Assembly: GCA_965261545.1 (NCBI GenBank)
Contig: CBDHDF010000006.1
Coordinates: 64,001-128,000, forward strand
DNA length: 64,000 nt
Source: Bdellovibrionales bacterium
Lineage (GTDB): Bacteria > Bdellovibrionota > Bdellovibrionia > Bdellovibrionales > UBA1609
Direction of reading: 5' to 3'
A model generated the notes under the pieces. The model ran no database searches and had not been told where the DNA came from. It saw only the letters and a list, made by a program, of their open reading frames with translations. The position numbers and the translations under genes are program-made. This document shows, piece after piece, positions 919 to 31,925 of this stretch. Numbering within the stretch: the first letter of the stretch is position 1; each line of letters starts with the position of its first letter.

Positions 919-1017
919 GTCAGTTATCCACAGACTCATCCATGGCGACGCTGCGGCTATGGCCCTCGGAGCCACAATAAAGCAGCGCTGCTGTGGGTGA
1001 GTCTTGTGGATAACGGC
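919..1017. repeat. DnaA-box-bounded hairpin cassette, copy in ISL3
   Basis: AGTTATCCACAG...TTGTGGATAAC imperfect palindrome homologous to 6213-6311, 29247-29344 and 31828-31925. Confidence 0.9.
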
Positions 1018-1532
1018 GGCTCTCCACACAAGTGATTTGGTAGCCCTGTCCTCCGTGTTTTTATGTACAAATCTTAGGAATAACCTGTACATCCAGTTTT
1101 TAGCTATTTCCCTAGGGAATTTGGACTTTAGGCTCCGAGAAACTCGGATATAGCCGAATATTGCAAGAGCTGTATTCTTATTTTTGGCTCTTCAATTATA
1201 CAAAGATTCAAATGAGCATAAATGAGGATGAAGACAGTGTGAATCAGTTGGTGAAAAATGACTACAAAAAACCTAACTTTAAACTGATTCTTGATTTCAT
1301 AATGGATAGCATCCCTCTTTTTGTTGCGGGGCTCTATCAGAAATTTAGGAAGCAGATAAAGTTGCTGATGAAGATTTCAATGGAGAAGAGGAGGCACTTC
1401 AAAAGAAGCTATGAAAGGTCTATCAAAAGGGCTGGGAGTTCTTTTAAAAGAAATAGCTTAACGCATGTTAGCTGACAATTAAAATGCCCCACCGTCGCCA
1501 ATGAAAAGTGGCCACTTTTCAGAGGAGGACCT

Positions 1533-1907
1533 ATGGTGATTTTTGGCATTGTCAACCGAGACGCATATAATCAATTGATATTACTCATAAAAAGGCTCCG
1601 AGCTGATAAGAACTCCTTTTGGGTTCTTGTCGACCTGGAAAGGGGCTCCGTGTTGGAGAGTCCTTCCATGACAGCCTATTCAGGTTCCATATTTCTCATT
1701 TGTAGACTGTTTCTGGATTTCAATGAGGTTAAATATATAGTCAAGAAAAGCCTGTTTAGGCTGTGCCCATTTTCTAAAGTATTTAAATTCCACAAGATTC
1801 CAACATTTGCCTCAATTTTCATGGAATTTCTTTTTGAAGACAGGCTTCCCTTAAAGCCGTCGCCAATTAAAATGTCCCACTTTCAATATGGAGGTTGTCG
1901 CCAATGA
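1533..1907 (+). CDS. Hypothetical 124-aa ORF in left end of IS21-A
   Basis: GAGGAGG RBS just upstream of ATG; open in both copies; no family recognised. Confidence 0.3.
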   Translation: MVIFGIVNRDAYNQLILLIKRLRADKNSFWVLVDLERGSVLESPSMTAYSGSIFLICRLFLDFNEVKYIVKKSLFRLCPFSKVFKFHKIPTFASIFMEFLFEDRLPLKPSPIKMSHFQYGGCRQ

Positions 1908-2281
1908 AAAGTGACCAATCTTCAGGGAGTGTTCAAATACTAGACAATGAAGTCTCTTCTTCTGATATAGATACTAAGCTCACAGAGTCCCTCCCTTTTG
2001 CAACTCAAAAGGTTAGCAATGAGGAGGATCTTATGATTAGTCAATACACTTTCGGCCGCATTCGTGACCTGAGTCACAGTGGTAAAAATAAGACAGAAAT
2101 ATCTCGTGAATTAGGGATCAATCGTAAGACGGTGCGCAAGTACTGTAAGTCCAACACCCCACCGAAGTACAAGGCGAGGTCCAAAAGAACTCGCCCAGAT
2201 CCCCTTAATGGATATATGGATCGGGTGAAGTACTTTTTGAAGTTGAACCCAAGTAACACCGCCCGTGAAATATATGAGCTA

Positions 2282-4180
2282 CCTGAAATCCCTAAAAGTT
2301 GTAACTAGGTGTAGGACTTAAGTCCTGATTATTGTCTGAGAAGGCCTTCACTTTGATTAAGAGATTGTCATCTCTTCAAAAGCATAGTTACAATATTAAC
2401 GATGTCATACACTTTTGAGCAAAAAAATAAGGGAAAAACCTATGTCTATAAAGTTGAAAGCTTTTGGGACAAGGAAAAAAAGCAGGCCAGGCAAAAACGC
2501 ATCTACCTTGGAAGAAAGGATGAGTTTACAGGTCAAATTAAGACCAAAAGAAAAAAGATTCCCATAGGCTCCTATAATGTGGGAGCCTTATTTTTCTTAG
2601 AGAAAATATGCGAACAACTAAATCTTCTAAAAACATTGTCTAAAATTTATCCAGATAATTACGAACATTATTTGCATTTAGCTTTTTTTAAAATAATCAA
2701 AAGAGAGCCCTTTTATCTTTACGATATGTGGTGTCAAGAAGCTTATGTTTCAAAGAAAAATTTTATGTCGTCACAAAAAATAAGCAATCTCTTATGTGAT
2801 CTTGGGAGAGATCAAAAAAAGATAGAATCTTTCTTTAGCGAATGGATAAATCAAGTGAAGGGTTCTGGTACGGTAATGTTTGACATCACATCCTTTTCTT
2901 CCTACTCTATGAATAATGAATTTTTAGAGAAAGGTTACAACAGAGATGGAGAGAATCTCGAACAAATAAACTTAGGTCTGATAAGTAGGAAATCTGAAGA
3001 CAATAAAACTCATACGCCTATAGCGTACAGAATCTATCCTGGAAGTATACCGGATGTCAAAACTTTATCGAATATTATTGAGATCATAACAAGTTATAAA
3101 TTAGATTTAGATTGTTTAGTTATGGATAAGGGTTTTTCTAGTGTAGAAAATATTAAGGGACTGCATCGTAAGGAATTGAAGTATTTGATACCCATGAGTT
3201 TTAGAACAAAACTCTCAAGAGAGCTTGCTGTGGCTTTAAATGAGAAAATAAAATCTCCATCATGCTCTTTTACTTTTAATGAGGAAATTTATTCGCATTG
3301 CAAAGAATCAATAAAAATCGGAGGATTTGATTGTACGGCTCATATTTTCTTAGACAAAGAAAGAAGGGTTTATGAGGAATCTGTGTTAATGAAAGAGTTG
3401 CTTGATTTTATGAAACTCTTTCTTGAGAAAGATTTGAAATCAGAAGAACAAGCTAGTTCCTATATGAAAGAAACTTTAGGAAATAAAAAAAGGTTTCTCA
3501 ATATCTCTGATTGCACTCCATTTAAGATTTCTTTAAATGAAGAAAATATTAATGAAGAATCTTCTACGCTGGGTATTATGATATTAATTACAAATAGTCA
3601 TGATTTAAAGAAAACAAATATATTGAGTTTATATCGAAACAAAGATATCATTGAGAAAGTATTTTTCTCATTCAAGCATGATATTAATGGAAGGAGAAGT
3701 CGAGTTCATTCTCTCATGAATATGAGGGGAAGCATCTTTATTAATTTTCTCTCTTTAATTTTAATTTCACATATTGATACTGTTATGAAAGATAAGAAGT
3801 TATATAAAAAAATGTCTAAAATAGAAATTTACAAAATGATGGACCGATTAAAATTTTATGAATTAGCTACAGGTGATCTGATGCTTGGAGAGCTGTCTAA
3901 AAAACAAAAGGATATTTTTTCAGCCTTCCAAATAGATGGGCTTCCCAAGACAAAATGATGTTTTTTATCTGTTTCAAATGTGACGGTGGCTGTGGCTACC
4001 ACTATGCCTCATCTATCCAATGGGGACGAAGAGGACCTTTCGCAGCAAATTCTTATGAATCATATTAAATATATTAATACTATTAAACCTCTCAAACCGT
4101 TGACAGCAGCCAATTCCATAGGAAGAGAGGAAAGTTAACGCAATACATTAAACCTAGTTACAACTTTTAGGGATTTCAGG
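2282..4180 (+). mobile_element. IS1634-family element A
   Basis: 29-bp perfect IR CCTGAAATCCCTAAAAGTTGTAACTAGGT; 6-bp TSD GAGCTA (2276-2281, 4181-4186); empty site seen in IS21-A copy 2. Confidence 0.95.
2402..3958 (+). CDS. IS1634-family transposase (518 aa)
   Basis: FDITSFSSYS, GYNRD, YPGSIPD, MDKGF, YRNKDIIEKVF motifs. Confidence 0.9.
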   Translation: MSYTFEQKNKGKTYVYKVESFWDKEKKQARQKRIYLGRKDEFTGQIKTKRKKIPIGSYNVGALFFLEKICEQLNLLKTLSKIYPDNYEHYLHLAFFKIIKREPFYLYDMWCQEAYVSKKNFMSSQKISNLLCDLGRDQKKIESFFSEWINQVKGSGTVMFDITSFSSYSMNNEFLEKGYNRDGENLEQINLGLISRKSEDNKTHTPIAYRIYPGSIPDVKTLSNIIEIITSYKLDLDCLVMDKGFSSVENIKGLHRKELKYLIPMSFRTKLSRELAVALNEKIKSPSCSFTFNEEIYSHCKESIKIGGFDCTAHIFLDKERRVYEESVLMKELLDFMKLFLEKDLKSEEQASSYMKETLGNKKRFLNISDCTPFKISLNEENINEESSTLGIMILITNSHDLKKTNILSLYRNKDIIEKVFFSFKHDINGRRSRVHSLMNMRGSIFINFLSLILISHIDTVMKDKKLYKKMSKIEIYKMMDRLKFYELATGDLMLGELSKKQKDIFSAFQIDGLPKTK

Positions 4181-5402
4181 GAGCTATTAGTTGAGGAGGG
4201 TTATCGTGGGAGTGAGAGAACGGTTCAGAGAAGAGTTTGTGAGATTCTTGGTTCTCGCCCCAAGGAGCGTTTTTTCAGCCAAAGATATGATCCTGGAGAA
4301 CAGGCTCAGTTTGATTTTAAGGAGAAGGTTGCTTTACCATTTGCCGATGGTGTTCAGATCGTTCATCTCCATTTTGGAACATTGCCTTGTAGTGGCACCT
4401 GTTGGGTTCGTGCCTACCCCTTTCTTGTCTATGAGTGTTTCATCGATGGGGTGCATGCTTTTTTGAAAAGATAGGTGGGATGAGTGCGAACATCCGTATT
4501 GATAATTTATCTCCCTGTGTGAAGAAAGTTCTTAAAGGAAATCAGCGAATTTACACCCAATCTTTTGATCGAGCCATCCAATACTATGGATTTAAGGTTC
4601 TTCCCTGCCGCGCAGGGAAGGGCTCTGACAAGGGAGATGTGGAGCGTGATATTCGAACCTTCAGTTCTCGGATAAAAAATATTGTTAGAAACAAAGGAAT
4701 TGTTTTTAAAGACTGGGATCATTTGAATCAGTTTTTAGAGTCTTATATGGATCAGCATCAGAGTGACTCCACCAAATCTCGCTTTGAGGAGGAGGCCAAA
4801 GTTCTTAAGCCTTTGCCTCCACGAGATGAAGATATTCTCTGTAAGGTGAATATTTGTCAAAGTAATGGTTATGGGACTTTGAGAATAGGTAAAACCACAT
4901 ATTCCATACCTGATGAGGTGATCCAATCTCCCTGTAAAACCGTACAGGGTCCCTATCATGTCACGATCTATCGTGCAGGAGGGAAGCAAGAAATTGTCGC
5001 TCGCCATCAAAGAAAACCTGATGGGGAGCATAGTCTTCTTCTTGAACATATCCTTCCCTCTTTAGTTCGTAAGCCGCAAGCCATGGTAAGATGGGCTCAC
5101 CGATCCATTCTTTTTCCAACAAATGTGTTTGAAAATTTTTATCAATACCTCAAGCAACAAGATTCAAGCCGTGCCGAGCATGAATATTTAAGAGTTATCA
5201 ACTTGATTCAGCATGTGAGTTGGCAGGACTTATCTACAGCCATGGAGCTTCAATTAGAAAGTCGTGAGATTTTCGACTTTAAATCCATAAAAGATTTGCT
5301 CTTAGGCAATCCCACCAAAATTAATTTGAATGACCAACAAAAACCACTTCAACCTAGATTGTCTCAATATGACAGTCTTGTTCCAAACATAGGAGGTTCT
5401 TA

Positions 5403-6185
5403 ATGAATCACGAAGAACTTATAGGTTCTCTTAAAAAACTCCGACTTCCAGCGATGGCGGATGAATATGTTGCAACGGCTAGAGTTGCCGAAAAAACAAA
5501 AAAGACGTATGAACAGTATTTAGGTATACTCGTTCAAAATGAGCTTGCTGACAAGCATTCCCAGAGAGTGAAAAGATTGCTTAAGGGGGCCAAGCTTCCT
5601 CAACTTAAATCACTCCAAACTTATAACTTCCAGAAAAGAACGGGAGTGACAGCTCAGCAAATTAATTGGATGGCAGAGGGAGAGTGGGTCAGAAAAGCCT
5701 GTAATGTTGTGTTTTACGGAAGCTTTGGAATGGGGAAAAGTCATTTGGCCATGTCCCTAGTTCGTTCACTCTGTGAACAAGGCTATCGATGTTTATGGGT
5801 CACCACTCATGAACTTATTGAAACAATGCGTGAAAGCAAGAAAGAACTCTCATTGAATGCTCTTTTTAAGAAATTAGACCGTTTTGATCTTATTGCTTGT
5901 GATGAACTTGGCTATACAGCTTCCTGCACAGAGGGGGCAGATCTTTTCTTTCAATTCATATCTCAGCGATATGAAAGGAAAAGTCTCATGATCACTACAA
6001 ACTTAACATACTCTGAATGGGATAAGGTGTTTCTTAACCCTATTACCACCGCTGCTGCTGTTGATCGAATCATTCACAACTGTGAAACCCTCAACATTGA
6101 AGGAAAAGAAAGTTGGAGAACCGAATCGGCAAAAGCCAAGTCTAAACAGAGCAAAGAGGAAAGTTCAACCAAAGAAGTTCATTAG
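5403..6185 (+). CDS. istB: IS21 helper AAA+ ATPase IstB
   Basis: Walker A GSFGMGKS, Walker B LIACDELGY, ITTNL, DRIIH; overlaps istA stop (TAATG). Confidence 0.96.
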   Translation: MNHEELIGSLKKLRLPAMADEYVATARVAEKTKKTYEQYLGILVQNELADKHSQRVKRLLKGAKLPQLKSLQTYNFQKRTGVTAQQINWMAEGEWVRKACNVVFYGSFGMGKSHLAMSLVRSLCEQGYRCLWVTTHELIETMRESKKELSLNALFKKLDRFDLIACDELGYTASCTEGADLFFQFISQRYERKSLMITTNLTYSEWDKVFLNPITTAAAVDRIIHNCETLNIEGKESWRTESAKAKSKQSKEESSTKEVH

Positions 6186-6212
6186 AGATCCCCACTTTTG
6201 GGGAAGGAACTC

Positions 6213-6311
6213 GCCAGTTATCCACAAAAATTTATCCACAGCAGCACTGCGTTGCTAGACATCGGGGTCACAGCCGCAGTGTCGCCATGGATAAATTTAT
6301 GGATAACTGGC
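6213..6311. repeat. DnaA-box-bounded hairpin cassette, copy in IS21-A copy 1
   Basis: Two TTATCCACA boxes then two inverted near-boxes in one long palindrome downstream of istB. Confidence 0.9.
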
Positions 6312-6471
6312 TTTTACCGTACTATTTGCTCGTCACTCTCGCGGAGCTTTAGACATTAGCTGCGCCAAGGAATCCTGAAAAATACTCCATTTACCTCTGC
6401 CATAGGGCTGAAGGATGCATTTGGGGTCATGCCAAAAGTGGTGGGCAGAAAATCATTCCTCAGAATCTTGT

Positions 6472-8382
6472 CCCGAGTTTGACAGCAGCATCTGCGTTAA
6501 AATGCGAAATTTCCAGAAATTGGGGTTGTACTGAAATATAATGGTAGCTGCTGGAAAAATTAAAATTGACGTAAAAAAAGTGTAGAAAACAAAATAGGAT
6601 TTTATCGTTTTAAATATTGATATATCATAGAAATATGTAGAAAATATCCTCATGTACATCCAAACGACTAAAACTCAAAAGGTCAGTGCTACTACCACCT
6701 TGTGGAGTCCTACAGAGAAAAAGGCAAATCCAAAAAACGCATGCTCATGTCCTTAGGTAAGGCTGGAGAAGGAGGAGAGGATAAGATTAATAGTTTGGCG
6801 CAGGCCGTATCCCGCCACCGAGAGCTTCTCACTGTGAGTCAATTGGCTAAGGAGCTTTACATCGAAGAGACTTTCATTTTGGGTCCCTTGCTGATTTTAC
6901 AAAAGTTGTTTGATCAACTGGGTATCAATAAGACCCTCAAAGACATAAAAGATTCTCATGAGAAAGTTCAATTTGATTTATGTAAGGTGATTTTTACCTT
7001 AGTTGCCAGCCGATTTATTGCTCCTAGTTCCAAGTTAAAGGTTTTTGAGTATTGGCAAAAATCTTTTTACCCAGACATGATTAAGGGTGATTTGAGTCTC
7101 CAGCATATTTATCGGTCTATGGACTTACTTGCCTCCCATAAGGATGAAATAGAGAACTCGCTTTATTGGGTGGGGCGAGATTTATTTAATTTCCAAGTAG
7201 ACATTGTGTTGTATGATTTAACAACCTTACGCTTCGAGAGTACAAGAACAGACTTAGGGAAACTTCGTCAATTTGGCTATAGTAAAGAGAGACGATCAGA
7301 CTGCACCCAAGTTGTCTTTGGTTTGTTGGTGAATCGGGATGGCATCCCTTTAGGTTTTGAGGTTTTCCCTGGTAATACTTTTGAAGGCAAGACGCTTTCA
7401 GATATTGTTGATAAAATGAGAAAAAAGTTTAATGTACGCCGTTTCATTTTTGTGGCTGATAGGGGGCTTTTATCAAAGGCTAATACTGACAAACTCAGTG
7501 AGGATCAAAGCGAGTTTATTGTTGGTATGAAGCTTGGATCTTTAAAAAAAGAAAAGAAACAAGAGGTCTATGATTTAAATCGTTTTAGCTGGGTATATGA
7601 GAATGAGCTTGCTGTTTACGAAACAGACCATGGGGGGCATAGATGTATTGTGACTTGGTCTAGGAAAAGAGCAGAGAGAGATAAAAAATCTAGAGAATCC
7701 CTTCTTGAAAAGATCGAAGGAAAACTATCTTCTAAAGGTGTTCAGTCTAGTACTTTTGTTTCCAATAAAGGTTATAAGAAATATGTAAAGATGGCTGACG
7801 ACAAAAATAAAAAACCTGAATTAAATGCAGAACAAATAGAATTAGATGAAAAAATTGATGGTTTTTTGCCGTCCTTACAAATGTCAAAGACTTGACGGCA
7901 GATGAGATTATTATCAACTACAAAGAATTGTGGAAAATTGAAGATGCTTTTGGTGAGTTAAAAGGGACTTTGAAAACACGTCCTGTTTTCCATTGGACAG
8001 ACCAGAGGATTATTGGACATTTAACTCTATGCTTTTTAACTTATCTTTGTGAGGCCCACCTTACAAAATGTTTAAGAGATAAGAAGATGAACCTAAAAAG
8101 CCCAGCCATAGGCATTGGTCATGTTAAAGAGCGACCTTTAACTGTTGTAGAGGCCATGAGGGAACTCAAGGAAGTTAGGGCTATCCCTGTTAAAATTCGT
8201 GATCAAGTCATTTGGACCCGCACAGATATCACTGGCAATGCCAACTCCTTATTTAAAGCCGCAGGCGTCCCCATCCCTCCCAGAATCCTTAATGCCCACA
8301 AGTGTGGATAAACAAAATACAACTGTATGCGTTAATCCTTTAATATCATTCGTTTGACGCAGATGCTGCTGTCAAACTCGGG
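6472..8382 (+). mobile_element. IS1634-family element B, copy 1
   Basis: IR CCCGAGTTTGACAGCAGCATCTGCGT; flanked by 53-bp direct repeat 6419-6471 / 8383-8435. Confidence 0.95.
6652..8311 (+). pseudogene. IS1634-B transposase with two 1-bp homopolymer deletions (about 6670 and 7862), possibly sequencing errors
   Basis: Translated fragments match the intact 9618-11279 copy; A4 vs A5 and T6 vs T7. Confidence 0.85.
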
Positions 8383-9546
8383 ATTTGGGGTCATGCCAAA
8401 AGTGGTGGGCAGAAAATCATTCCTCAGAATCTTGTGGCATAGTCCGAGTTAAATGATGAGCAAAATAAAGACACTTGACTAAACTCTGAACGAAGAATAA
8501 CTAAATCAGTACATCATCAACTGGCCGTTTTTCATTGGCGACGGCTTCTAAAAATGGCCAATTTTAATTGGCGCCTAACAACGCAGAGGCAGAGGGGTGT
8601 GGTGGCTTAAGGAAACGGCATTGCCCAAGGGGTGGTTGACCATCCAGAGTTTAACTGAGTGAGGTCACTTGCTGAGTTGACATTGGGAGGAGGGACTCCG
8701 CCTCTTCCCAATGTATTCCCACTGATAATACGACCAAAACCATAACTTAATGTGACCGTCCCGCGGCTCTCCCCTAGAAGGGCACCACTATAGGAAGAAG
8801 GGCGAGAAGAGGTGGTGGCGGTGGCAGAAACACTTCCTGTTGCGTAACTTGAAGTGATAGTTCCATTCCCACTCGATCCTGCATTGCTTCCCACCAAGCC
8901 ACCAGCCCAGGAGGAGGAACGAACACCGCTGTCTAAGGATAAGGCAAAAACATTTCCTGTTGCATAGCTTGAGGTGATTGTACCACCATTAGATCCCACC
9001 AAGCCACCACTGCTGGAGTTAGAAGTCAAAATAGAGGCGGACGCAGAGGATGCAGAGGAGGAAACATCTCCTGTTGCATAACTTGAAATGATGGCTCCTC
9101 TATTGTTATGTCCTACCAAACCGCCACTATTGGAGGAGATAGATAAGAGGGAAACAGAGGAAGCAGAGGAGGCAGAGGAGGAAGAAGAAAAAACAGCTCC
9201 TGTTGCGTAACTCGAAATGATAGTTCCACTATTATAGCCCACCAAACCACCACTGTAAGATGTGGACAAGATGGAGGAAGAGTTGATGGAGGCAGAAACG
9301 GTTCCTGTTGCATAACTTGAGGTGATGGTGCCACCATTATATCCCACCAAACCACCGCTGTAGGATGTAGACGAGTTGGAGGAAGGGTTAGGGGTGGAGG
9401 AAAGAAAGGAGGAAAAAACAGATCCTGTTGCGTAGCAATCCTTGATCCTACCAAAATTTATCGCAACTAAAGAACCCACATAATCTCTACCTTCCACATC
9501 GGCCATTTCAATACCAAGATTTTTAACAGTCCCACCAACTCTTAAT

Positions 9547-11459
9547 CCCGAGTTTGACAGCAGCATCTGCGTCAAACGAATGATATTAAAGGATTAACGC
9601 ATATAGTTGTATTTTGTTTATCCACACTTGTGGGCATTAAGGATTCTGGGAGGGATGGGGACGCCTGCGGCTTTAAATAAGGAGTTGGCATTGCCAGTGA
9701 TATCTGTGCGGGTCCAAATGACTTGATCACGAATTTTAACAGGGATAGCCCTAACTTCCTTGAGTTCCCTCATGGCCTCTACAACAGTTAAAGGTCGCTC
9801 TTTAACATGACCAATGCCTATGGCTGGGCTTTTTAGGTTCATCTTCTTATCTCTTAAACATTTTGTAAGGTGGGCCTCACAAAGATAAGTTAAAAAGCAT
9901 AGAGTTAAATGTCCAATAATCCTCTGGTCTGTCCAATGGAAAACAGGACGTGTTTTCAAAGTCCCTTTTAACTCACCAAAAGCATCTTCAATTTTCCACA
10001 ATTCTTTGTAGTTGATAATAATCTCATCTGCCGTCAAGTCTTTGACATTTGTAAGGACGGCAAAAAAACCATCAATTTTTTCATCTAATTCTATTTGTTC
10101 TGCATTTAATTCAGGTTTTTTATTTTTGTCGTCAGCCATCTTTACATATTTCTTATAACCTTTATTGGAAACAAAAGTACTAGACTGAACACCTTTAGAA
10201 GATAGTTTTCCTTCGATCTTTTCAAGAAGGGATTCTCTAGATTTTTTATCTCTCTCTGCTCTTTTCCTAGACCAAGTCACAATACATCTATGCCCCCCAT
10301 GGTCTGTTTCGTAAACAGCAAGCTCATTCTCATATACCCAGCTAAAACGATTTAAATCATAGACCTCTTGTTTCTTTTCTTTTTTTAAAGATCCAAGCTT
10401 CATACCAACAATAAACTCGCTTTGATCCTCACTGAGTTTGTCAGTATTAGCCTTTGATAAAAGCCCCCTATCAGCCACAAAAATGAAACGGCGTACATTA
10501 AACTTTTTTCTCATTTTATCAACAATATCTGAAAGCGTCTTGCCTTCAAAAGTATTACCAGGGAAAACCTCAAAACCTAAAGGGATGCCATCCCGATTCA
10601 CCAACAAACCAAAGACAACTTGGGTGCAGTCTGATCGTCTCTCTTTACTATAGCCAAATTGACGAAGTTTCCCTAAGTCTGTTCTTGTACTCTCGAAGCG
10701 TAAGGTTGTTAAATCATACAACACAATGTCTACTTGGAAATTAAATAAATCTCGCCCCACCCAATAAAGCGAGTTCTCTATTTCATCCTTATGGGAGGCA
10801 AGTAAGTCCATAGACCGATAAATATGCTGGAGACTCAAATCACCCTTAATCATGTCTGGGTAAAAAGATTTTTGCCAATACTCAAAAACCTTTAACTTGG
10901 AACTAGGAGCAATAAATCGGCTGGCAACTAAGGTAAAAATCACCTTACATAAATCAAATTGAACTTTCTCATGAGAATCTTTTATGTCTTTGAGGGTCTT
11001 ATTGATACCCAGTTGATCAAACAACTTTTGTAAAATCAGCAAGGGACCCAAAATGAAAGTCTCTTCGATGTAAAGCTCCTTAGCCAATTGACTCACAGTG
11101 AGAAGCTCTCGGTGGCGGGATACGGCCTGCGCCAAACTATTAATCTTATCCTCTCCTCCTTCTCCAGCCTTACCTAAGGACATGAGCATGCGTTTTTTGG
11201 ATTTGCCTTTTTCTCTGTAGGACTCCACAAGGTGGTAGTAGCACTGACCTTTTGAGTTTTTAGTCGTTTGGATGTACATGAGGATATTTTCTACATATTT
11301 CTATGATATATCAATATTTAAAACGATAAAATCCTATTTTGTTTTCTACACTTTTTTTACGTCAATTTTAATTTTTCCAGCAGCTACCATTATATTTCAG
11401 TACAACCCCAATTTCTGGAAATTTCGCATTTTAACGCAGATGCTGCTGTCAAACTCGGG
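9547..11459 (-). mobile_element. IS1634-family element B, copy 2
   Basis: Same IRs as copy 1; 125-bp direct repeat 9422-9546 / 11460-11584. Confidence 0.96.
9618..11279 (-). CDS. IS1634-family transposase (553 aa, intact)
   Basis: LYDLTTLRFE, GYSKERRSD, FPGNTFE, VADRG, YKELWKIEDAF, RPVFHW motifs. Confidence 0.94.
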   Translation of the reverse strand: MYIQTTKNSKGQCYYHLVESYREKGKSKKRMLMSLGKAGEGGEDKINSLAQAVSRHRELLTVSQLAKELYIEETFILGPLLILQKLFDQLGINKTLKDIKDSHEKVQFDLCKVIFTLVASRFIAPSSKLKVFEYWQKSFYPDMIKGDLSLQHIYRSMDLLASHKDEIENSLYWVGRDLFNFQVDIVLYDLTTLRFESTRTDLGKLRQFGYSKERRSDCTQVVFGLLVNRDGIPLGFEVFPGNTFEGKTLSDIVDKMRKKFNVRRFIFVADRGLLSKANTDKLSEDQSEFIVGMKLGSLKKEKKQEVYDLNRFSWVYENELAVYETDHGGHRCIVTWSRKRAERDKKSRESLLEKIEGKLSSKGVQSSTFVSNKGYKKYVKMADDKNKKPELNAEQIELDEKIDGFFAVLTNVKDLTADEIIINYKELWKIEDAFGELKGTLKTRPVFHWTDQRIIGHLTLCFLTYLCEAHLTKCLRDKKMNLKSPAIGIGHVKERPLTVVEAMRELKEVRAIPVKIRDQVIWTRTDITGNANSLFKAAGVPIPPRILNAHKCG

Positions 11460-12278
11460 ATCCTGTTGCGTAGCAATCCTTGATCCTACCAAAATTTATC
11501 GCAACTAAAGAACCCACATAATCTCTACCTTCCACATCGGCCATTTCAATACCAAGATTTTTAACAGTCCCACCAACTCTTAATGTAAGAAATAAAGCCG
11601 CATTACCAGTGGTCACATGGATTGTGGGATTCATAATTTTTTTGCCGCGTCCATTCAATATTCCTGAAAAGTTGGCAATGGGAGAAGCGTCTTGATTCTT
11701 TAAGTCAATATTTTGACCCATTACATAGTTAAAAGATGATGAAGAATACATAAAATGACCTAGCAATGCTAAGTGAGCAGGCGAACATAAAACAAAGGGA
11801 TCATTCGCAGTGCCCAAGCCAGGTAATTCACTATCCATTGTGTTGGGGTCATTGCAAATCTCTAGGTCAGGCTCCTCGCCGGGAATCTCTGGCGTGGGTG
11901 GAGCGGGCTCCTCGCCGGGAATCTCTGGCACTGAAGTTGGACTCTTTAACCTGTAACTACGATAGGAACTTTCTTCATGACATGCAGACAGCAGTAAGCA
12001 ACACAAAAGTAGTAAGAAACATAAGAACACATGGCCAAGAAATAAATTGCAACGCATGGTCGATAAATTGTAACGATATTCCTTCATTTTGATCTCCAGC
12101 ACCTCGGCCGGGTGAATGAACTCATTGGGTTAATGGGACTGATTTGGCAGAAGGGTTTTTTCGCATAAAATATTTATCAATGTGTAATTATTATACAGTG
12201 CCATCAATTGACGCACAAGTTATCATGCAGAATACTGCGTTAGGGCTCAAACGGCTTTAAGGAATGGAATGGAGGTCT

Positions 12279-13079
12279 ATGAAAATCATATCTTGGAATG
12301 TCAATGGAATTCGAGCTTGTGCAAAAAAGGGCCTCTTGGAGTTTGCATCCAAGGAAGATCCCGATATTCTCTGCCTCCAGGAAACCAAGGCCCACCCCGA
12401 CCAACTCGTATCTCAACTTTTACACCCCATGGGACGCAAAAGTTATTGGTCATCTGCTGTGAAAAAGGGGTACTCAGGTACTGTTACCTATTTGAAAGAA
12501 AAACCAGACAGCGTCATACGAGGTATTGGCCTCAGAAAATTTGATGCAGAGGGTCGATTTGTTGTGACGGAGCAAAAGGGCTTTGCTTTATACAATGTAT
12601 ACTTCCCCAACGGTTCAGCCCGAGAAGAGAGGCATTTATACAAGCAAGATTTTCTGAAAAAATTTACAACTCATCTCAAAAAGAGGGTGGATCGTAGCGA
12701 GGAGGTGATGGTGGTGGGTGATTACAATGTGGCCTATCAAGATATAGATGTCCATGACCCCCAAGGCCTCTCCAAAGTCAGTGGCTTTCTCCCAGAAGAA
12801 CGGGAGTGGTTTCAAGGGTTTCTCAATGTAGGCTTTACAGACATCTTTCGCCACTTTCATCCCAATGAGGAGAATCGCTATTCTTGGTGGTCGTATAGAG
12901 AAAATGCTAGAATTGCCAATAAGGGCTGGAGAATTGACCACATATGTTGTACAAGTGGACTAGCTCAAAAAGTAATATCTATTGACATTCTTGATGAGCA
13001 AATGGGCTCCGATCATTGTCCCATTGTCGTCGAGATGGAAGACTCATTTGACTTGGCCACCCCTGCTTCAAGAGCCTAA
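12279..13079 (+). CDS. xth: Exodeoxyribonuclease III / AP endonuclease
   Basis: SWNVNGIRA, LQETK, YFPNG, GDYN, GWRIDH, SDHCP. Confidence 0.96.
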   Translation: MKIISWNVNGIRACAKKGLLEFASKEDPDILCLQETKAHPDQLVSQLLHPMGRKSYWSSAVKKGYSGTVTYLKEKPDSVIRGIGLRKFDAEGRFVVTEQKGFALYNVYFPNGSAREERHLYKQDFLKKFTTHLKKRVDRSEEVMVVGDYNVAYQDIDVHDPQGLSKVSGFLPEEREWFQGFLNVGFTDIFRHFHPNEENRYSWWSYRENARIANKGWRIDHICCTSGLAQKVISIDILDEQMGSDHCPIVVEMEDSFDLATPASRA

Positions 13080-19225: not shown

Positions 19226-19226
19226 A

Positions 19227-20890: not shown

Positions 20891-20915
20891 GTACAAACAA
20901 TCGCCCGTGGAAGCA

Positions 20916-23900: not shown

Positions 23901-25082
23901 AATGTCTCTGCAGATCTTTTGTTTAGCAAAAAAAATCTTCTCATCAACACCTTTAAGGCTAATTTTGCTAGAGGAAGCATACAGTCCTGGGGCAAAGTTC
24001 ACTTTCTTGAAATAAATAAAGTGCCCATAGATATTAAAGCTAAATTTAAAGGTATTTCTTTGGATGTCCCCGAAGGAGTCCACACAAAGGGGGATGGAGA
24101 TATACATATTTCAGGAAATTATTTTCCCTATAAAGTTAGAGGACAATATAACATTTTAAGTGGTGGAGTGAAGAAGAACTTTTCGATACCAATATCAAGT
24201 TTTAAGAAAAGAGTCACACCCAGTATTATTCTTCCTGATTTTTTAAACAAAGCCAGAGAAACACCTATTGATCTCAAATTTGCATTGCATATTAATAATC
24301 CAATTAAAATACAAACACGAGTTAGCACTGTAGATATTAATACCCAAGTCCATGGACATGTCAAAGTAATGGGACCATATAATCAAATCATATTGAGAGG
24401 AACCCTTGAAACAATGGATGGCGGAGAAGTTAACTTCAGATCTAATATTTTTAATATAAAGACAGGTCGAATTGTCTATAGAGATTCTTCTCCCTTTGAC
24501 CCTGAAATACTTATTTCTGCCAACACGAGGGTCGGAGGATCAGACATTAACCTTGTCGCTCAAGGAAGACCAAGTTCACCTGAGATACATTTAACAAGTC
24601 GCCCCCCTATGCCAGAGCATGAAATTATATCTTTATTAGTTTTTGGACTCACATTAAAAAAATCATATACTCTTTCGCCGTCATCGATATTTGATGAAAA
24701 TAATCAAAGACAATCTACCTTTCAAGCAGCCTCTGCAATTTTTAATGAACAAATCGGTCTTACAAAAGAAATTAACAATCAACTTGGTATTCAAGTGGAT
24801 ATTTCTTCGTCCTATGACGAGACAACGGGAGCAATTATTCCATCTGTTGTCGCTCGAAAACAGTGGACACCTCAATTTGGAGCCTCCATTGCAAGAACTA
24901 TAGGTAACAAAGAACCTACCAATCTTCTGAGAACGGAGTATCGTATTAATAATAATGTTTCATTCGTAGGATCATTTAAACAAAAAGAAAATAGCTCAAC
25001 AGAGACTGATATAAAAAATTCTAATATTTTTGGACTCGATTTGGAATATAAATTTGAATTCAATCTAGATGATGACAAATGA
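20916..25082 (+). CDS. Translocation/assembly module TamB-like protein
   Basis: N-terminal anchor, long beta-rich body, C-terminal DUF490-like region (FDPEI..., LTSRPPMPEHEIISLLVFG); upstream of an Omp85 gene. Confidence 0.85.
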   Translation: MMSQRTVIRMSGLLSLTCLLIGFLYSYYSPRLKSWLLLEIATQSQKHLHIKLLPESLELTFLPLGLSIHNIHMTPQPPLKDNLAPTNIDRVDIYFQLSPLFRKNLKLKHIHVTGGTFKYTQQLSKKSAQEPSQKPSEKSPQKKDINLDLLLNLPIDQISTENVNIYVKMEKKEEHNLREDTLIQAIDLKSNLRIVSGHIYFDVLSNKVIFKKTNPHASINMGLFAQIQVSKDRIQIDSIKFTKNRSFFNISGKISGHLNQNQYNTINIKTEGDIKLEDLTHIISGVFPQKTIPQMEGDIDFKVRINHKRKQSLLLDIDIKSQNTYLNKIEVGNFQIKGKNKGRKFLTSFFRIENSGAKTQIHNFNILLRDEYYFSGDIDLSYFELKNFLNTLKIENTLVHMDANGNIPCEGRLKPEFELNCHYDLKIPLLEVQKDNYSLSHTTKLPKLSKLSKSSNKMKLVGKLKLPHNKIKSPHNKVKLKNIYAKGEVSISSKKLTYKSDIGFPSAKAQTHGSVSFNKDFLYISHYKGTIEKLSNIDNLFDLNLSGSVHIKGTAQGNITGKPKHTLIDMNLQGRHGYLKDWFLGHPSFHMKYHQGILKFSDLEGRFHQTKYHGNITLDFLKNNISLNIEAPLLRLNIFNNSFKKKFNINPRLHGSGKAHMNLWGPFSKLNYKLKSKFHRGSLYGEGFDVLECHISSKSGESSLDNVLIKRRQSSLKLSGFVEHNGNIDAHLSGHRITIEQIDNLESLGLDLTGQFDFESKIQGPHQKLTAQIEGTISNTMVRDAAIKDSTFKIHTTEDKMSGHFNLLGGEIDSKFHLPLKKGNPFSLSIYTKNWDFTKFFSMFSESVEKKSFQSKMTSEINLSNENGNLWKSSGYGQISRFEISRGPIFMYAPQTMKIFFSNGIMKTQNFKIIGENTFLEVISEGSSYEKINIALNGILNMGLGILITPFLNELNGRLTFSNQISGHLFDPYIKGSIDIKDAFIQIKKFPHPLENVSADLLFSKKNLLINTFKANFARGSIQSWGKVHFLEINKVPIDIKAKFKGISLDVPEGVHTKGDGDIHISGNYFPYKVRGQYNILSGGVKKNFSIPISSFKKRVTPSIILPDFLNKARETPIDLKFALHINNPIKIQTRVSTVDINTQVHGHVKVMGPYNQIILRGTLETMDGGEVNFRSNIFNIKTGRIVYRDSSPFDPEILISANTRVGGSDINLVAQGRPSSPEIHLTSRPPMPEHEIISLLVFGLTLKKSYTLSPSSIFDENNQRQSTFQAASAIFNEQIGLTKEINNQLGIQVDISSSYDETTGAIIPSVVARKQWTPQFGASIARTIGNKEPTNLLRTEYRINNNVSFVGSFKQKENSSTETDIKNSNIFGLDLEYKFEFNLDDDK

Positions 25083-28045
25083 ATATAGATATGACTATGA
25101 CTATAAAAAAAATCATTATATTTTTCGCATTCATCCTTTCTTTTAGCCAAACCACGATGGCTAGGGAACAATTTTTGTTCGAATCTATATCAGAATCAGA
25201 TATCAAGTCTATCAAAAAAAAATTTCTTAATCACCAAAAATCTTCACCCAATAATCAAATCATCCTCCCTCCCAAGGCCAACACACCCCTTCAACTCAAT
25301 ATTTCTCTCGGAGACAAGATTATTAAATACTTAATGATGACGGAACGATATAAATCTGTCTCCCTCATAAAAAGCCAAAAAGGTCTTATTATTAAGGGAG
25401 AAAAATCTCGTATTATTAGAAAAATTTCTATTAAAGGAAATAAAATTATAAGCAATAAAAAGATTGCTTCTTTCACCTCCTTATCTGAAGGTCAAGGCAT
25501 GAATCGCTCTTCTTTGATTCAAGGGGTAAGCGCAATCAAAAAATATTATAGCGAGAGAGGTTATATCAACGTCAACGTTCAAGTAAAAATAGTCTCTACT
25601 GGCAAGGATGGCATTCACCTCAAGTATGTCATTGAAGAAAATGAGCCTTGCTTAGCTGACAACATTGTTATTACAACGACTAATAATAAAATAAAGAAGA
25701 AAATTCTATCAAAAATAAAAAAATATAAGAACAAAGTATTTTCTAACAAACTTATTTTTAAAATAGACGAATCTATCAAAAATACCCTCCAAGAAAATAG
25801 ATATATAACTTCCCAATTGGAACAGGTCCAAGCCATTTATAACGAAAAAAAGACACGTGTAAAAATAGAGTATAAAATAAGAAATCCCTATAAATATGAA
25901 ATATATATTTTTGGCAACAAGGAGTACTCAAGATCATCAATTTTGCGCACCTTCGGCATTAAAAAAGTTCAATCACACAATATTGATCCTGTTAATGAGA
26001 TGCGAATTCAACTTAAAGATCGCTATAAGAGGGATGGATTCATTCATGTTAAAGTTGACTACACAATAGAGTCTCACCTATCCTCATTCATCAAAAAAGT
26101 AGTATTTAAAATAACCGAGGGACCAAAAGTAAAAATAAATAAAATCAAAGTTTCTGGAATTTTGAAGAAAAAATCTAAACGATATGAAGAATTTATCAGT
26201 CAAAATAGTTCAGATTTAGTAGCTTCAGGATACTACAATTTAGAAGATATTAAAATAGGAAGGGATAATCTTATCGCTCACCTAAGAAACCAAGGTTACC
26301 TTCAGGCGATTCATATTTCAACATCTATAAAATATCTGAATCGAGATAAATCATTGGGGGATATATCCATTCTTATTGATGAAGGTTTGCCAACAAAAAT
26401 TCATCATATTAAATTTACAGGTGCTAATTTTTTTACAAACCAACAACTCATAAAACAAGTAGGCATAAAGGTCGGATCCCCTTTGAAAAATCAACATGTA
26501 AAGGACGGTGTACAAAAATTAAAAGATTTTTATGCAAACCAAGGATTCTTGGATTTTTATGTGAGAAATGAGGAATCAAAAAATATCATAACCCCCAAAA
26601 AACCAATCATTCAGTTCAATAATCTTAATAATCAAGAAGACTTAAACTTTAATCATCAAGTAGATTTAGCTTTTATGATTTATGAAGGTCCTCAAATCAA
26701 AGTGGCCTCTATTCTTATAGAAGGCCACTCTATCACCAAAGATTATGTCATCCTCAAAGAACTTAACTTTAATGTCGGCGATGTTCTCACACGAAAGAAC
26801 ATACTCCTCTCACAGAAGGCTCTGAATCGCCTCGGTATTTTTTCTCAGGTTGACATTCAAGTTCTTGGGCAAGGAACAACGAATTCCTGGCGCACCGTGC
26901 TTATTCGCATTCGTGAAGCCAACCCAGGATCCTTTAAAACGGGCCTGGGGCTTACCAATGAAAGGCAGCTAACAGGCCGCTCTTATGTAGGAGCTGCCTA
27001 CAACAATATCAGAGGTACTTCACGGTCCTTAAGCGGGCGCCTTGACTACCAAGTAAGCCTTGTTGAAAAAAGAGCCTCCAATGAGTTGCAAGCCACTATG
27101 GGCTACTTAGAACCTTATCTTTTCGATTCCATGTGGCGTGGGCGTATCAACTCCATTGCCGCCAAAGAACTACGGGATCAAGATGAACAGGTAGAGAGGT
27201 ATGCAATAAGCCAAACACTCGACCTCATCCTTGAGAAGAATTTTAGCCAAGAAATCACGTTCAATTGGACTCTTTTAAGCTGGACCCAAAGACGCCTTGA
27301 TATTGAACCCAAACCAAATTCAAGTTTAAGCCGAAAAACCTTAAACGAACTCAAAATTGCTCAAATAGGGCCTAGCCTAGACTTTGAGTATAGGGACAGC
27401 CCCTTTCTCCCCACAAAGGGCTACTATGGTAAACTGAGTGCATTTTATGCCTCTCCATTACTGGGCAGTTCAGACCCCGTGCACTTTTTTAAGATGGAAG
27501 GAAATTTTCGACATTATTTACCCATCGGAGAAACTCGATGGATTTGGGCCAACTCTTACAGTGCAGGCTATATAAAAGATATTCTAGGAAATAATGGACA
27601 AAGCGGCATTCCATTTCTCTCCTTTTTCTTTCTCGGTGGGCAAAGATCCATTCGTGGATTTGGCGGCAGTGATGAGCTGGAAAGAATTCCCAGTAGTGAT
27701 ACACTCAGCCTTAGCGATCCCAGTAGTTCCACACAATTAAGACAGGCCGAACTTATCCAAACAGAAAAAGCTTTTTATGGCCTTTTCCGCTCTGAAATCC
27801 GATTTCCCATTAAAGGAGTGTTTGGTGGTGTTCTTTTCTATGATGTGGGCGGGGTTCATATGTCAGATATATCTCAGAGAAAAACTTGGAGGCAAAGCTT
27901 TGGAGTCGGCCTGAGATTAAATTCACCCTTCGGACCTATTGTCCTCGATTATGCACGAAAAATCAATCCTTTGTCTGGCATTGGACGCTATGGCCAACAA
28001 AATGAGCGAGAGAGTAAAATTCATGTTTCTATTGGTACTTTTTAA
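25079..28045 (+). CDS. BamA/TamA (Omp85) family outer-membrane protein with multiple POTRA domains
   Basis: POTRA repeats (I.I.GN, Y...GY), GGQRSIRGF, GVGLRLNSPFGPIVLDYA, terminal F. Confidence 0.92.
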   Translation: MNIDMTMTIKKIIIFFAFILSFSQTTMAREQFLFESISESDIKSIKKKFLNHQKSSPNNQIILPPKANTPLQLNISLGDKIIKYLMMTERYKSVSLIKSQKGLIIKGEKSRIIRKISIKGNKIISNKKIASFTSLSEGQGMNRSSLIQGVSAIKKYYSERGYINVNVQVKIVSTGKDGIHLKYVIEENEPCLADNIVITTTNNKIKKKILSKIKKYKNKVFSNKLIFKIDESIKNTLQENRYITSQLEQVQAIYNEKKTRVKIEYKIRNPYKYEIYIFGNKEYSRSSILRTFGIKKVQSHNIDPVNEMRIQLKDRYKRDGFIHVKVDYTIESHLSSFIKKVVFKITEGPKVKINKIKVSGILKKKSKRYEEFISQNSSDLVASGYYNLEDIKIGRDNLIAHLRNQGYLQAIHISTSIKYLNRDKSLGDISILIDEGLPTKIHHIKFTGANFFTNQQLIKQVGIKVGSPLKNQHVKDGVQKLKDFYANQGFLDFYVRNEESKNIITPKKPIIQFNNLNNQEDLNFNHQVDLAFMIYEGPQIKVASILIEGHSITKDYVILKELNFNVGDVLTRKNILLSQKALNRLGIFSQVDIQVLGQGTTNSWRTVLIRIREANPGSFKTGLGLTNERQLTGRSYVGAAYNNIRGTSRSLSGRLDYQVSLVEKRASNELQATMGYLEPYLFDSMWRGRINSIAAKELRDQDEQVERYAISQTLDLILEKNFSQEITFNWTLLSWTQRRLDIEPKPNSSLSRKTLNELKIAQIGPSLDFEYRDSPFLPTKGYYGKLSAFYASPLLGSSDPVHFFKMEGNFRHYLPIGETRWIWANSYSAGYIKDILGNNGQSGIPFLSFFFLGGQRSIRGFGGSDELERIPSSDTLSLSDPSSSTQLRQAELIQTEKAFYGLFRSEIRFPIKGVFGGVLFYDVGGVHMSDISQRKTWRQSFGVGLRLNSPFGPIVLDYARKINPLSGIGRYGQQNERESKIHVSIGTF

Positions 28046-28115
28046 AAAAATCCGTGCCAATCAATTGACAAAACAAGCAATTGACAAAACAAGAAAAATT
28101 TGGAACAATTATATA

Positions 28116-28894
28116 ATGACTCTTGTATCTTCTTCAAATCAAGGAGGTTTCACGATCACCGCAGCACTGATGTCTGTGGCTATCGTGGGCGTAGGTATGT
28201 CTGCCATGATAAGCATGCTTTCGTTTCAACATAGAGAACTTCAGTCCATCAAAGAGCAGCTTATTAGTTCCAATATAAAACAATTTATCCTACAAACCAT
28301 GAAAGATTTGAGAAAATGCGATTGTCACTTCAATTCATCTTTGAACTCCGGCCCCTTCAACGGTGAAGCTGTAGGGCCTTTCACCATCGACATGACAACA
28401 CCACCCATTGGAGACATTAACCTAGGCAGCCTCCGCACAGGTTGTGATTTCACAGGAACGAACAATATCATCGTCGCGGCAGGAGCAACCATTAAAAATA
28501 TGGGACGGCTAAAGACAAAATCGGTCCGAGCAAAAAAGATTCAGCCCACAACAACCCTCGGAGAGTATCAAGCTGAACTTACGGTGGATTTTGAAACACC
28601 AAATCGCCCCCTCAGGCCCGTCGTCGTAGATATTCTTCTTTCTGTTGACACCACGGTAGCTGGTGCCCAAAGCCCATAACTCACTGTGGCCCGACACTGG
28701 TTGCAGCAGCCAGCAACACAGATTCTGCCGTGTACAAATATAAAACTCAGTTCGATAACTTCATTGAAAATACAGAGTTTAGTATCCTAACCCCCGGCAG
28801 CACCATTGTTCAATGCTTTAAAAAAACATTTCGATGTTCTGGAGAGCATAACCTATCCACATCCACCTGCGATTACTCTTCAAGAGGTATTTAT
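28116..28894 (+). pseudogene. Type IV pilin/pseudopilin-like protein, frameshifted near 28670 and truncated by IS21-B
   Basis: NQGG|FTI prepilin-like cleavage site plus hydrophobic helix; adding one A gives an open frame up to the IS end. Confidence 0.7.
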
Positions 28895-29246
28895 TGCTGA
28901 ATTTCACGAGTTTGACCCACTGAATTTCACGAGTTTGACCCACTGAATTTCACGAAGTTTGACCCACCCCTCAGTCAGTCAATTTGAGGTCCAATTTTGA
29001 ATTTCACGGTGGCTCAAACTTTGTCAATTTAAACCTTCTTTTTTCTGCTGACTCAGTAACTTTTACACCCTCAATGTCACGATGTCCCAACGGTGGGTTA
29101 AGGCTTATTTGCCAGAATGTTAGATGCCAACTAAAATTGGCCACTTTGTCATTGAGAATCTCGGCCCTTCCCATTTTTGAGGTTTCAATGGAGGGTTTTT
29201 CGATGGGGATGTTGAACCCATGGCTCAAAATGGCAGAGAATAGCGA

Positions 29247-29344
29247 GCCAGTTATCCACAAATTTATCCATGGTGACGCTGCGTCTGTGACCCCGATGTC
29301 TATCAACGCAGCGCTGCCGTGGGTAAATTTTGTGGATAACTGGC
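29247..29344. repeat. DnaA-box-bounded hairpin cassette, copy in IS21-B
   Basis: 8 differences in 98 bp from the IS21-A copy by manual alignment. Confidence 0.9.
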
Positions 29345-29433
29345 GGGTACATGATTCAATAGTTCCGATGGAGTGTCTCCCGATGGTGTCTTCTGATGGT
29401 GTCTTCTAAGGTCTGCTTTTGCATGGATTCTCC

Positions 29434-30162
29434 TTAAATCGTCTTTCTCTGCCTAAATGAGCTTCCAGACATGGCTATTTTGATAGCTTGAGAGGTTATG
29501 CGATCCATAATAGCTTCACAAACGATGGGATCCCCAATGACTTCACTCCAATTTTTTATTGGAAGTTGGGTTGTAAGAATGAGGCTCAGGTCAGGGCCTC
29601 GTTCATCAATCACATCGTAAAGGTCTTGATATTGGCTGGAGGTAAGGGGTTTGATACCAAAGTCATCCAACACAAGTATAGAGATTGATTTTAGCCTTTT
29701 AAGGAAGTTTAGATATGTCCCCTGGGCTCTTTCTAAGTTGAATTTTTCAACAAGAGTATTCATTCTGAAGAACTGAGTGGAAAAACCCTGGCGACAGGCG
29801 TGATTGCCTATGGCACAAGCCAAATATGACTTTCCAACACCTGTTGGGCCAGAGATAATTATATTTTGACCTCTTTGAGCAAATCTCATAAGGGCTAGAT
29901 CACTCAAAACTCTTCGATCGACTCCTCGGCTGGGCTTGGTTTCAAAGGCCTCAAGGCTTGCTTTTTGCTTCAAAGCTGCTCTTTTGATAAGTCTTAAGAC
30001 CTTCTGATTGTCACGATGGATTTTTTCGTCCTCAAAGATGACATTTAGAAAGTCCTCGTAACCAAGATCCTGCTCCTCAGCTTCTTTGAGCCTCTGGCTC
30101 AAGGTTGCTAAAACTCCCCTCATTTTTAATATCTCTAATAAATTTTCTGTTTGTTTAATCAT
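29434..30162 (-). CDS. istB: IS21-B IstB ATPase
   Basis: GPTGVGKS, VLDDFG, TTQLP, AIMDRI. Confidence 0.96.
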   Translation of the reverse strand: MIKQTENLLEILKMRGVLATLSQRLKEAEEQDLGYEDFLNVIFEDEKIHRDNQKVLRLIKRAALKQKASLEAFETKPSRGVDRRVLSDLALMRFAQRGQNIIISGPTGVGKSYLACAIGNHACRQGFSTQFFRMNTLVEKFNLERAQGTYLNFLKRLKSISILVLDDFGIKPLTSSQYQDLYDVIDERGPDLSLILTTQLPIKNWSEVIGDPIVCEAIMDRITSQAIKIAMSGSSFRQRKTI

Positions 30163-31827
30163 TTTCTTCTCCTATACGACCTCTCTTATGGAGGTCAAAA
30201 TGACCCGTTAGGTGGTTGAGAACCACCCACCGGGGCTATGTGATTAGTGGCGGCAAGCATTCTCCCAGTGCTCTGAACCTCTTAAATTTTCATTAGGTTG
30301 ACGGCAGACTCTTGGCTCCTCTTTTCGATGACTTTTTGCTGAAATGACTTTCTCAACTCCACGAACCCTAATGTCACTTAAAGCTGCATCTACAAAAAAT
30401 GAGCAAGCCTGCTCCAAAGAAGCTGTTGAATACCGTTTTCTTAGATTGAGTATCCCCTGAACACGACGAAGATACATAAGCGGATGGCGAGGCTCTTTGA
30501 TAAGCCGCTCGGCAACTTTGTGAATGCTTTCTCCAAGGCTTGATGCCTCTTTAAGTACATTTTGTGGCGTTTGCTCTAAAATGGGCCGGTGGGACTCAGG
30601 GAGATGAGATTTTGTCGTAAAGTAGCGCCCTCGACTGCCCTGGGGGATGTGATGTATCGCCACCCGCTCTAATTCTGAATAAACCTCCAAGCATTGTTGG
30701 CTAATACGAATATCTAATTTCTTGCCGCGATGCTTATAAGGAACAGAGTAAAAATTGTAGTTATATTGAATGTGACAATCCGGATGAACCTTGGCATGCT
30801 TCCAGAATCCACTCTCATAGCGTCTTTCAGGAAGAGGATTCAATTTTGACTTCTCAAAAGATTCAAACTTCTGTCGACGACTCAACCCATACTTTTTTTG
30901 AATACGATCATTGAAAATAGCTGCCAAATGCTTCAACTCAGCGTTGATGTCTGCTAGAGAATACATTTGTCGCTCTCTTATCTGGGGCCAAGACCAGCGC
31001 CAAAAGACTCCAAGGGTATTTTCGATAAGACTCTTGTCTTTGGGATGAGATGGCCTCATCGCCAAAGGAGCCACATTGTAGTGATCACACAAGAGGTGAA
31101 ACTCAGAGTTAATATCGGGATCATAAGTATCAGCTCTTGTCACTTGAACCTTTGCGTTATCAAAAGCAATGGTTTCGGTCACACCACCAAAAAACTCAAA
31201 ACCAGAAGCTATGGAGGAAAAAACATCTTCCCGCTGCTCTGTTAATGTGGCGCAGGGAAAGAAAAACTGACTCGATGGAAGTATCATCCCAAATAATCGA
31301 CATTGGATGAACTCCCCAGTCTTGGTATCTGTATAGCCAAAACAAGAGTCTTTTCCCTTATAGTCAAATTCACTCCGCTCACCAGGGGTGAATGTCTGGT
31401 GCATATCAAGCTTTATACTTGGGTGCCTCCGACGAAACTCTCTCCAAAAAGAAAGATAACTCACACCGTCAATCTCGGACTGAATATGTCGCTCCCAGTA
31501 ATGAGCTAATTGAGTCCCTAGGTGTTAGGCGCCAATTAAAATTGGCCATTTTTAGAAGCCGTCGCCAATGAAAAACGGCCAGTTGATGATGTACTGATTT
31601 AGTTATTCTTCGTTCAGAGTTTAGTCAAGTGTCTTTATTTTGCTCATCATTTAACTCGGACTATGCCACAAGATTCTGAGGAATGATTTTCTGCCCACCA
31701 CTTTTGGCATGACCCCAAATGCATCCTTCAGCCCTATGGCAGAGGTAAATGGAGTATTTTTCAGGATTCCTTGGCGCAGCTAATGTCTAAAGCTCCGCGA
31801 GAGTGACGAGCAAATAGTACGGTAAAA

Positions 31828-31925
31828 GCCAGTTATCCATAAATTTATCCATGGCGACACTGCGGCTGTGACCCCGATGTCTAGCAACGCAGTGCTGCTG
31901 TGGATAAATTTTGTGGATAACTGGC
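31828..31925. repeat. DnaA-box-bounded hairpin cassette, copy in IS21-A copy 2
   Basis: Reverse complement of 6213-6311 apart from one A-run base. Confidence 0.9.

Follow-up and report, generated by a model that had tools for sequence, protein, structure and literature searches.

In the A site of the ABC primosome (Masai et al. 1990, via PMC6127211), the sequence of DnaA box R1 stands in the stem of a single-stranded DNA (ssDNA) hairpin; only one box is present there, and the assays used DnaB and DnaC of E. coli. A DnaA box inside an insertion sequence (IS) is described in PMC3347997 for the outside end of IS50/Tn5, where one box overlaps the transposase-binding end, and a dispensable module riding on an IS downstream of the transposase is described in PMC12288879 for ssr9 of ISPpu9 (IS110 family), a transcribed RNA with solo copies and circles of its own in one IS family. 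Multi-copy palindromes are also represented by repetitive extragenic palindromic (REP) and REPIN sequences, which occur dispersed and in association with a RAYT gene, and viral DnaA-box arrays contain inverted blocks of tandem boxes separated by 2-3 nt. Box-rich DNA can further be compared with the datA-type DnaA sinks. Here we describe a cassette of ~100 bp, predicted to recruit host DnaA as a hairpin with two inverted DnaA-box pairs, in a 64,000-nucleotide stretch of a Bdellovibrionales bacterium (assembly GCA_965261545.1, contig CBDHDF010000006.1, positions 64,001 to 128,000; hereafter the window). The cassette is real, well bounded and accessory, and is common to three IS families in this one genome. 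By anatomy it would be closest to the A site, priming being only predicted, and it differs from that site in its two inverted tandem pairs, its location within IS elements and a host that has DciA. In contrast to the IS50 end, it combines four boxes in an internal hairpin shared across IS families; in contrast to ssr9, it has no solo copy and spans three families; in contrast to REP/REPIN sequences, it is confined to IS elements and lacks a neighbouring Y1 gene. The viral arrays share no homology with it beyond the boxes and are without its GC-rich inner stem.

Four imperfect-palindrome cassettes of ~100 bp were recovered in the window exactly where a preliminary description of this DNA had placed them, namely in an ISL3 element (919-1017, + strand), in copy 1 of an IS21 element termed IS21-A (6213-6311, - strand), in a second IS21 element termed IS21-B (29247-29344, + strand, 89 bp past the istB stop) and in copy 2 of IS21-A (31828-31925, + strand, 27 bp past the istB stop and 305 bp from the right end). 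The two IS21-A copies are one element with a single difference, and the window thus contains three variants. The IS21-A and IS21-B cassettes differ at 8 of 98 positions, as had been claimed, despite IstB proteins with 25% identity and IstA proteins with 24% identity over 193 aa, and the ISL3 cassette differs from both IS21 versions at 22-23 positions. Each arm carries an outer DnaA box and an inner near-box in tandem, the spacing being 3 nt in one arm and 3-4 nt in the opposite arm, and the GC-rich stem and a variable loop lie inside the box pairs. In duplex form every one of the five variants known retains exactly two perfect boxes, for example at 924-932 (+) and 1005-1013 (-) in the ISL3 version; in IS21-A copy 2 two perfect boxes stand in tandem on the 3' arm (31899-31907 and 31912-31920). 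The perfect box TTATCCACA occurs 12 times in the window against 0.71 expected, and eight of these occurrences lie within cassettes, in agreement with the inverted boxes and near-boxes described previously; the chance of a perfect box in such a palindrome is p about 5e-4 by composition.

In the four window copies all eight strands fold as one long hairpin and far beyond shuffled sequences, with z scores of -8.2 to -11.2 for RNA folding and -5.4 to -10.6 for DNA folding, which upholds the earlier view of a structured module. The more stable strand is the G·T-rich one in all window copies. In the predicted fold a perfect box duplex lies in the outer stem in four of the five variants, matching the anatomy of an A site, with IS21-A having one T·G pair there.

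A hidden Markov model (HMM) built from the window copies recovered 111 loci genome-wide at E <= 10. All but one have IS flanks, the exception (E 0.76) being a chance match, and the cassette was thus found outside an IS at 0 of 110 loci. By host, the 106 strong matches divide into 61 in IS21-A, 24 in ISL3, 18 in IS21-B and 3 in an IS110 element (NF033542, E 6e-74), where the cassette lies ~75 bp past the transposase stop within sub-terminal repeats. The cassette stands behind the last transposition gene in all four host elements. The proposal of a module carried on IS elements is therefore confirmed as an IS-internal module of three IS families; the three hosts named earlier hold for the window, but IS110 is a fourth host outside it, and "three unrelated elements" overstates the case, since ISL3, IS21-A and IS21-B all carry the cassette but the two IS21 elements are members of a single family, with a relic end connecting them. 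As a palindromic, multi-copy sequence the cassette could also be an independent REP/REPIN or miniature inverted-repeat transposable element (MITE) that targets IS elements and is mobilized by an enzyme of the RAYT type or of an IS. This is highly improbable and largely refuted by the genome-wide search, which shows no scattered REP, by the lack of empty sites and by the only Y1 transposase matches being four Y1_Tnp fragments 14.8-35 kb from the nearest cassette. No cassette-less copies of IS21-A, IS21-B or ISL3 were found, all measured spans being normal or longer, and contigs from the reads of three of five sequencing runs contained neither a joint that skips the cassette alone (3/3 runs) nor a new cassette variant or an IS circle junction. 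With no solo copy either, a MITE or non-autonomous IS was rejected, and the idea of an independently exchanged, self-mobile module did not hold, the traces fitting nested insertion and recombination instead. The host elements are also present in sequencing runs of two studies, one of which may be the source of the sample, again with no further variant of the cassette. Nor is the cassette a known Rfam family: no match reached the gathering score in the window, and at E <= 10 only sub-threshold, miRNA-like chance matches overlap it.

Cassettes are themselves insertion sites. A group II intron (Rfam matches) sits at one cassette position in five IS21-A copies (genome C10:508798, C11:1056592, C2:47908, C2:463512 and C11:695142; loci L294-L298) and in two IS1634 ends, either as a 645-nt version without an open reading frame (ORF) or as a longer version that contains an insert. 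Another intron-like 5' end disrupts an ISL3 cassette at C10:111604. Targeting of the hairpin by the intron was rejected, since occupancy of five cassettes and two IS1634 ends, where 100 and 83 sites were available, points to sequence targeting.

The cassette is very probably an optional module that occupies an exchangeable 3' slot. Nine relatives of IS21-A (51-63% IstB identity), two of IS21-B and one of IS110 (51-52%) were examined, and none of the 12 carries it: in seven of the nine IS21-A relatives the slot is empty and the element ends directly after istB, in the other two a different hairpin occupies it, and the cassette is absent from both IS21-B relatives and from the IS110 relative. 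ISL3 relatives with DNA share 33% identity or less and are uninformative, so that ISL3 lacks an empty-slot control. Closer protein relatives exist (IstB 73-81%, ISL3 67-85%).

The route between elements has left several traces. Homology between the ISL3 and IS21 cassettes begins and stops at the hairpin. In all 18 IS21-B copies a relic IS21-A-type end lies 129 bp from the cassette, inside IS21-B's own end; in the window it is a terminal repeat at 29118-29147 (+), identical to the IS21-A end at 26 of 30 positions. IS110 and the right region of ISL3 share 182 bp at 84% identity in inverted orientation, cassette included, the longer ISL3 segment that matches the IS110 element elsewhere in the genome spanning 897-1074 (+) in the window. 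Finally, one diverged IS21-A copy is a chimera bearing the IS21-B version of the cassette. Nested insertion followed by trimming and conversion would explain the relic end, the shared piece and the chimera, and the cassette is likely an accessory part passed between IS elements by nested insertion and recombination. Given this mode of spread, the high identity of cassettes from different hosts does not prove selection.

The same traces allow a reading without function, in which a fragment of a DnaA-box array of phage or plasmid type was caught once by an IS, spread by nested insertion and stayed tidy through gene conversion and self-repair of the palindrome. The relic end, the shared piece of some 180 bp and the chimera account for the spread without invoking a role, the closest relatives transpose without the cassette, and inverted DnaA-box arrays with similar tandem spacing are common in viral contigs among the matches listed. 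We nevertheless consider a neutral passenger fairly unlikely, in that the stretch shared by ISL3 and IS21 has been trimmed to the hairpin, one-strand wobble pairs persist where repair should give perfect palindromes, and other hairpins occupy the same slot of other IS21 elements. Among distant IS21 elements, 27 of 57 distinct tails have a hairpin at z <= -4, the test being crude, with 12 shuffles, and terminal repeats accounting for at least one false positive.

Several hairpin types recur right after istB in unrelated IS21 elements (loci L215, L216, L227, L243, L258, L259, L213 and L193; L186 and L283; L244, L252, L206 and L212), with no Rfam match there at the loci scanned, and they are possibly an undescribed class of 3' modules. 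An inverted DnaA-box pair was seen in one of 83 loci, in a short hairpin directly after istB in an IS21 of an Anaerolineae metagenome-assembled genome (L241:2607-2647); it was rejected as a relative of the cassette because of its opposite polarity and the lack of further matches.

Beyond this genome the cassette was not found, which is not to say absent, fragmented assemblies being often without IS elements. No homologue was detected in 40 relatives by blastn, in 150 genomes of the order with a covariance model, in 400 genomes of the phylum, genome_contigs and viral contigs with a strict two-arm pattern, or in viral contigs with a one-arm pattern, and blastn against plasmids and phages gave only short chance matches. 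Seven pattern matches in metagenomes were rejected as unrelated perfect palindromes, which score 50 bits or less with the covariance model versus 112-118 bits for the 25 true copies scored, and matches to the generic box pattern were rejected as viral DnaA arrays. No description of this cassette was found in the full-text literature searched, which leaves out most subscription papers.

Several features of the host bear on whether the boxes are genuine. The genome has one dnaA gene, whose product carries the DHTTV motif when aligned to domain IV of E. coli DnaA, and the dnaA-dnaN interval contains one perfect box of the same sequence together with near-boxes, making it the densest box cluster outside the cassettes, tied with one other. 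Among the matches listed, 107 distinct viral DnaA-box arrays have tandem spacers of 2 nt in 93 pairs, 3 nt in 46 pairs and 4 nt once, and the 3-nt spacer of the cassette is thus one of the two commonest. The use of this box in the host oriC region, the motif in domain IV and the array-like spacing strengthen the DnaA-box reading of the preliminary description, and on these sequence features host DnaA probably binds the cassette. In the same searches many viral contigs (L016-L161, among the matches listed) showed dense inverted DnaA-box arrays with 2-3 nt spacing. Elsewhere in the genome, C6:164058-164140 has three DnaA-like boxes followed by AT-rich repeats, an origin-like arrangement that lies away from dnaA and carries an IS1634 insertion.

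Of the 298 perfect boxes in the genome, 202 (68%) lie in cassettes; the other 96 are spread over 55 contexts, near the expected 48, one of these contexts being IS1634 with 37 copies. In the 3' tails of 31 repeated-ORF families, DnaA-like boxes were found only in the three cassette hosts among them. A different GC-rich hairpin lies in the 3' tail of the family represented by C11:319859 (10 matches). DnaA bound to DNA can terminate transcription as a roadblock and can be titrated by datA-type loci. The cassette could accordingly be a double-stranded operator whose four duplex boxes are bound by DnaA, acting as a roadblock to read-through transcription or as a tie to the cell cycle, with its ~110 copies together forming a large DnaA sink. 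The two perfect duplex boxes kept in every variant and the cassettes' share of the genome's boxes speak for such a role, as does the finding in PMC3347997 that DnaA binds the Tn5-end box and can out-compete transposase. We regard this as somewhat unlikely, since an operator leaves the paired non-box stem, the compensatory pairs and the one-strand G·T bias unexplained and its boxes lie 130-330 bp from the IS ends rather than in the transposase-binding ends; a distance of 129-327 bp from the nearest end or relic end likewise sets the cassette apart from an end site of the IS50 type.

Covariation was counted across five related variants, with a tool that warns that related sequences can beat its shuffles. 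Pairing is retained in 164 of 165 cells, and four of the 33 stem pairs have changed on both sides; the compensation claimed earlier is thus present, but in four pairs rather than three. Changes on one side only number four, and each of them yields G·T with the same strand orientation; with the fixed mismatches counted in there are 7 G·T versus 1 A·C (p=0.035, the sites not being independent), which supports the claim that the wobble mismatches fall on one strand. With respect to the transposase, ISL3 has the G·T-rich strand as sense and IS21-A, IS21-B and IS110 have it as antisense, as had been noted for the ISL3 transposase and istAB. The stem is better conserved than the flanks between ISL3a and ISL3c (65/72 versus 126/171, p=0.003) and between ISL3a and IS110 (65/72 versus 65/83, p=0.05), and three variable sites recur on both ISL3-type and IS21-type backgrounds, indicating repeated change or conversion.

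The G·U-type bias and the RNA folding z scores of -8 to -11 would also suit a structured RNA: an antisense or 3' transcript would contain a long, irregular hairpin that halts read-through or undergoes RNase III cleavage, and the boxes would be incidental or of secondary importance. PMC12288879 describes an IS110 with a hitchhiking small RNA downstream of its transposase. This appears quite improbable, given that orientation to the transposase is inconsistent between hosts, unlike the fixed one of an intrinsic terminator, that a search at the cassette gave no sigma-70-like promoter, that no terminator call makes use of the long stem, that Rfam gives no match, and that perfect boxes with DnaA-like spacing would go unexplained. 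The inconsistent orientation makes a DNA role a better fit than an mRNA element. A peptide role was rejected as well, the short ORFs over the cassette differing between hosts (by-eye reading).

The DNA role that we favour draws on what is known of IS circles. IS21, ISL3 and IS110/IS1111 elements all form circles (10.1101/2023.06.07.543989), host replication converts a figure-eight into the IS circle (PMC7780238), and a box in an ssDNA hairpin enables DnaA to load DnaB so that priming starts (PMC6127211). By analogy, the cassette may be an A-site-like DnaA hairpin that helps helicase loading during copy-out of the IS circle, a reading to which we assign a probability of about one in three. Circle formation would expose an IS strand, the exposed strand would fold into the cassette hairpin, and DnaA bound to the stem box would assist loading of replicative helicase and primase in the manner of the ABC-primosome A site, giving a higher yield of double-stranded IS circles. 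Being symmetrical, the hairpin would serve whichever strand is exposed.

A number of observations weigh against helicase loading at the cassette. The most frequent host, IS21-A, has a T·G pair within the outer box of the folded stem and retains two perfect boxes in the duplex, which favours double-strand binding. Other elements that resemble circle formers are without the cassette (31 families scanned, the family names read from sequence), as are the close relatives examined. The host has PriA, so that a booster is not needed, and it has DciA, whereas the ABC assay used DnaC (no dnaC search was made). Cassette orientation shows no bias relative to local GC skew (42/86 and 48/83), the skew itself being scrambled. 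IS110 circles may arise by excision rather than by replication. The strand bias is modest at 7:1, and the cassette variants are few and related. Arm-to-arm repair of quasi-palindromes and gene conversion, of which the chimeric copy is an instance, can yield compensation and high identity without selection.

The host elements in the window were assigned to ISL3 and IS21 by Pfam and NCBIfam, the IS21-B istA piece scoring just below the family cut-off because the gene is interrupted. The 3' part of the ISL3 transposase gene (421 aa in full) lies at 66-854 (+), with the right end of the element at 1155. IS21-A copy 1 (1466-8580; istB 5403-6185, +) contains two nested IS1634 insertions. IS21-B (28920-35164, - strand; istB 29434-30162) is interrupted by IS21-A copy 2 (31523-34768, - strand; istA 32735-34339, istB 31953-32735), which is flanked by a 5-bp target duplication. 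Upstream of istA, IS21-A has a 124-aa ORF (34327-34701 and 1533-1907) with no Pfam or NCBIfam match. Copy 1 is inserted inside a non-coding, MITE-like repeat of ~353 bp (window 1156-1465 and 8581-8623; also from 35165), which gives 136 BLAST matches genome-wide, 57 of them full-length (1-353). Each of the 37 IS1634 copies has one perfect DnaA box at the transposase stop (8303-8311 and 9618-9626 in the window), IS110 has a perfect box upstream of its transposase (C7:469659), and a CRISPR-DR16-like match at threshold score lies just outside an IS110 copy (L176:121-157). Repeats of three or more copies make up 38% of the genome's bases; dozens of mobile ORF families are repeated, GC skew is scrambled, and no replichore bias of the cassettes was found.

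Whatever its role, the presence of the cassette in some IS elements and its absence from close relatives constitute a natural plus/minus pair, and its distribution shows that non-coding parts cross IS family lines and that IS expansion supplies 68% of one genome's perfect DnaA boxes. If neutral, the cassette still illustrates clearly how chimeric elements are built by nested IS insertion. A broader reading, which we consider unlikely, is that the position behind the last gene of circle-forming IS elements is a plug-in slot for host-factor hairpins, swapped across families by nested insertion, and that the cassette is a DnaA-recruiting, private replication-priming site with which the IS completes its copy-out independently. 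If this were true, ~110 copies carrying two thirds of the host's perfect boxes would retune chromosome replication as a side effect.

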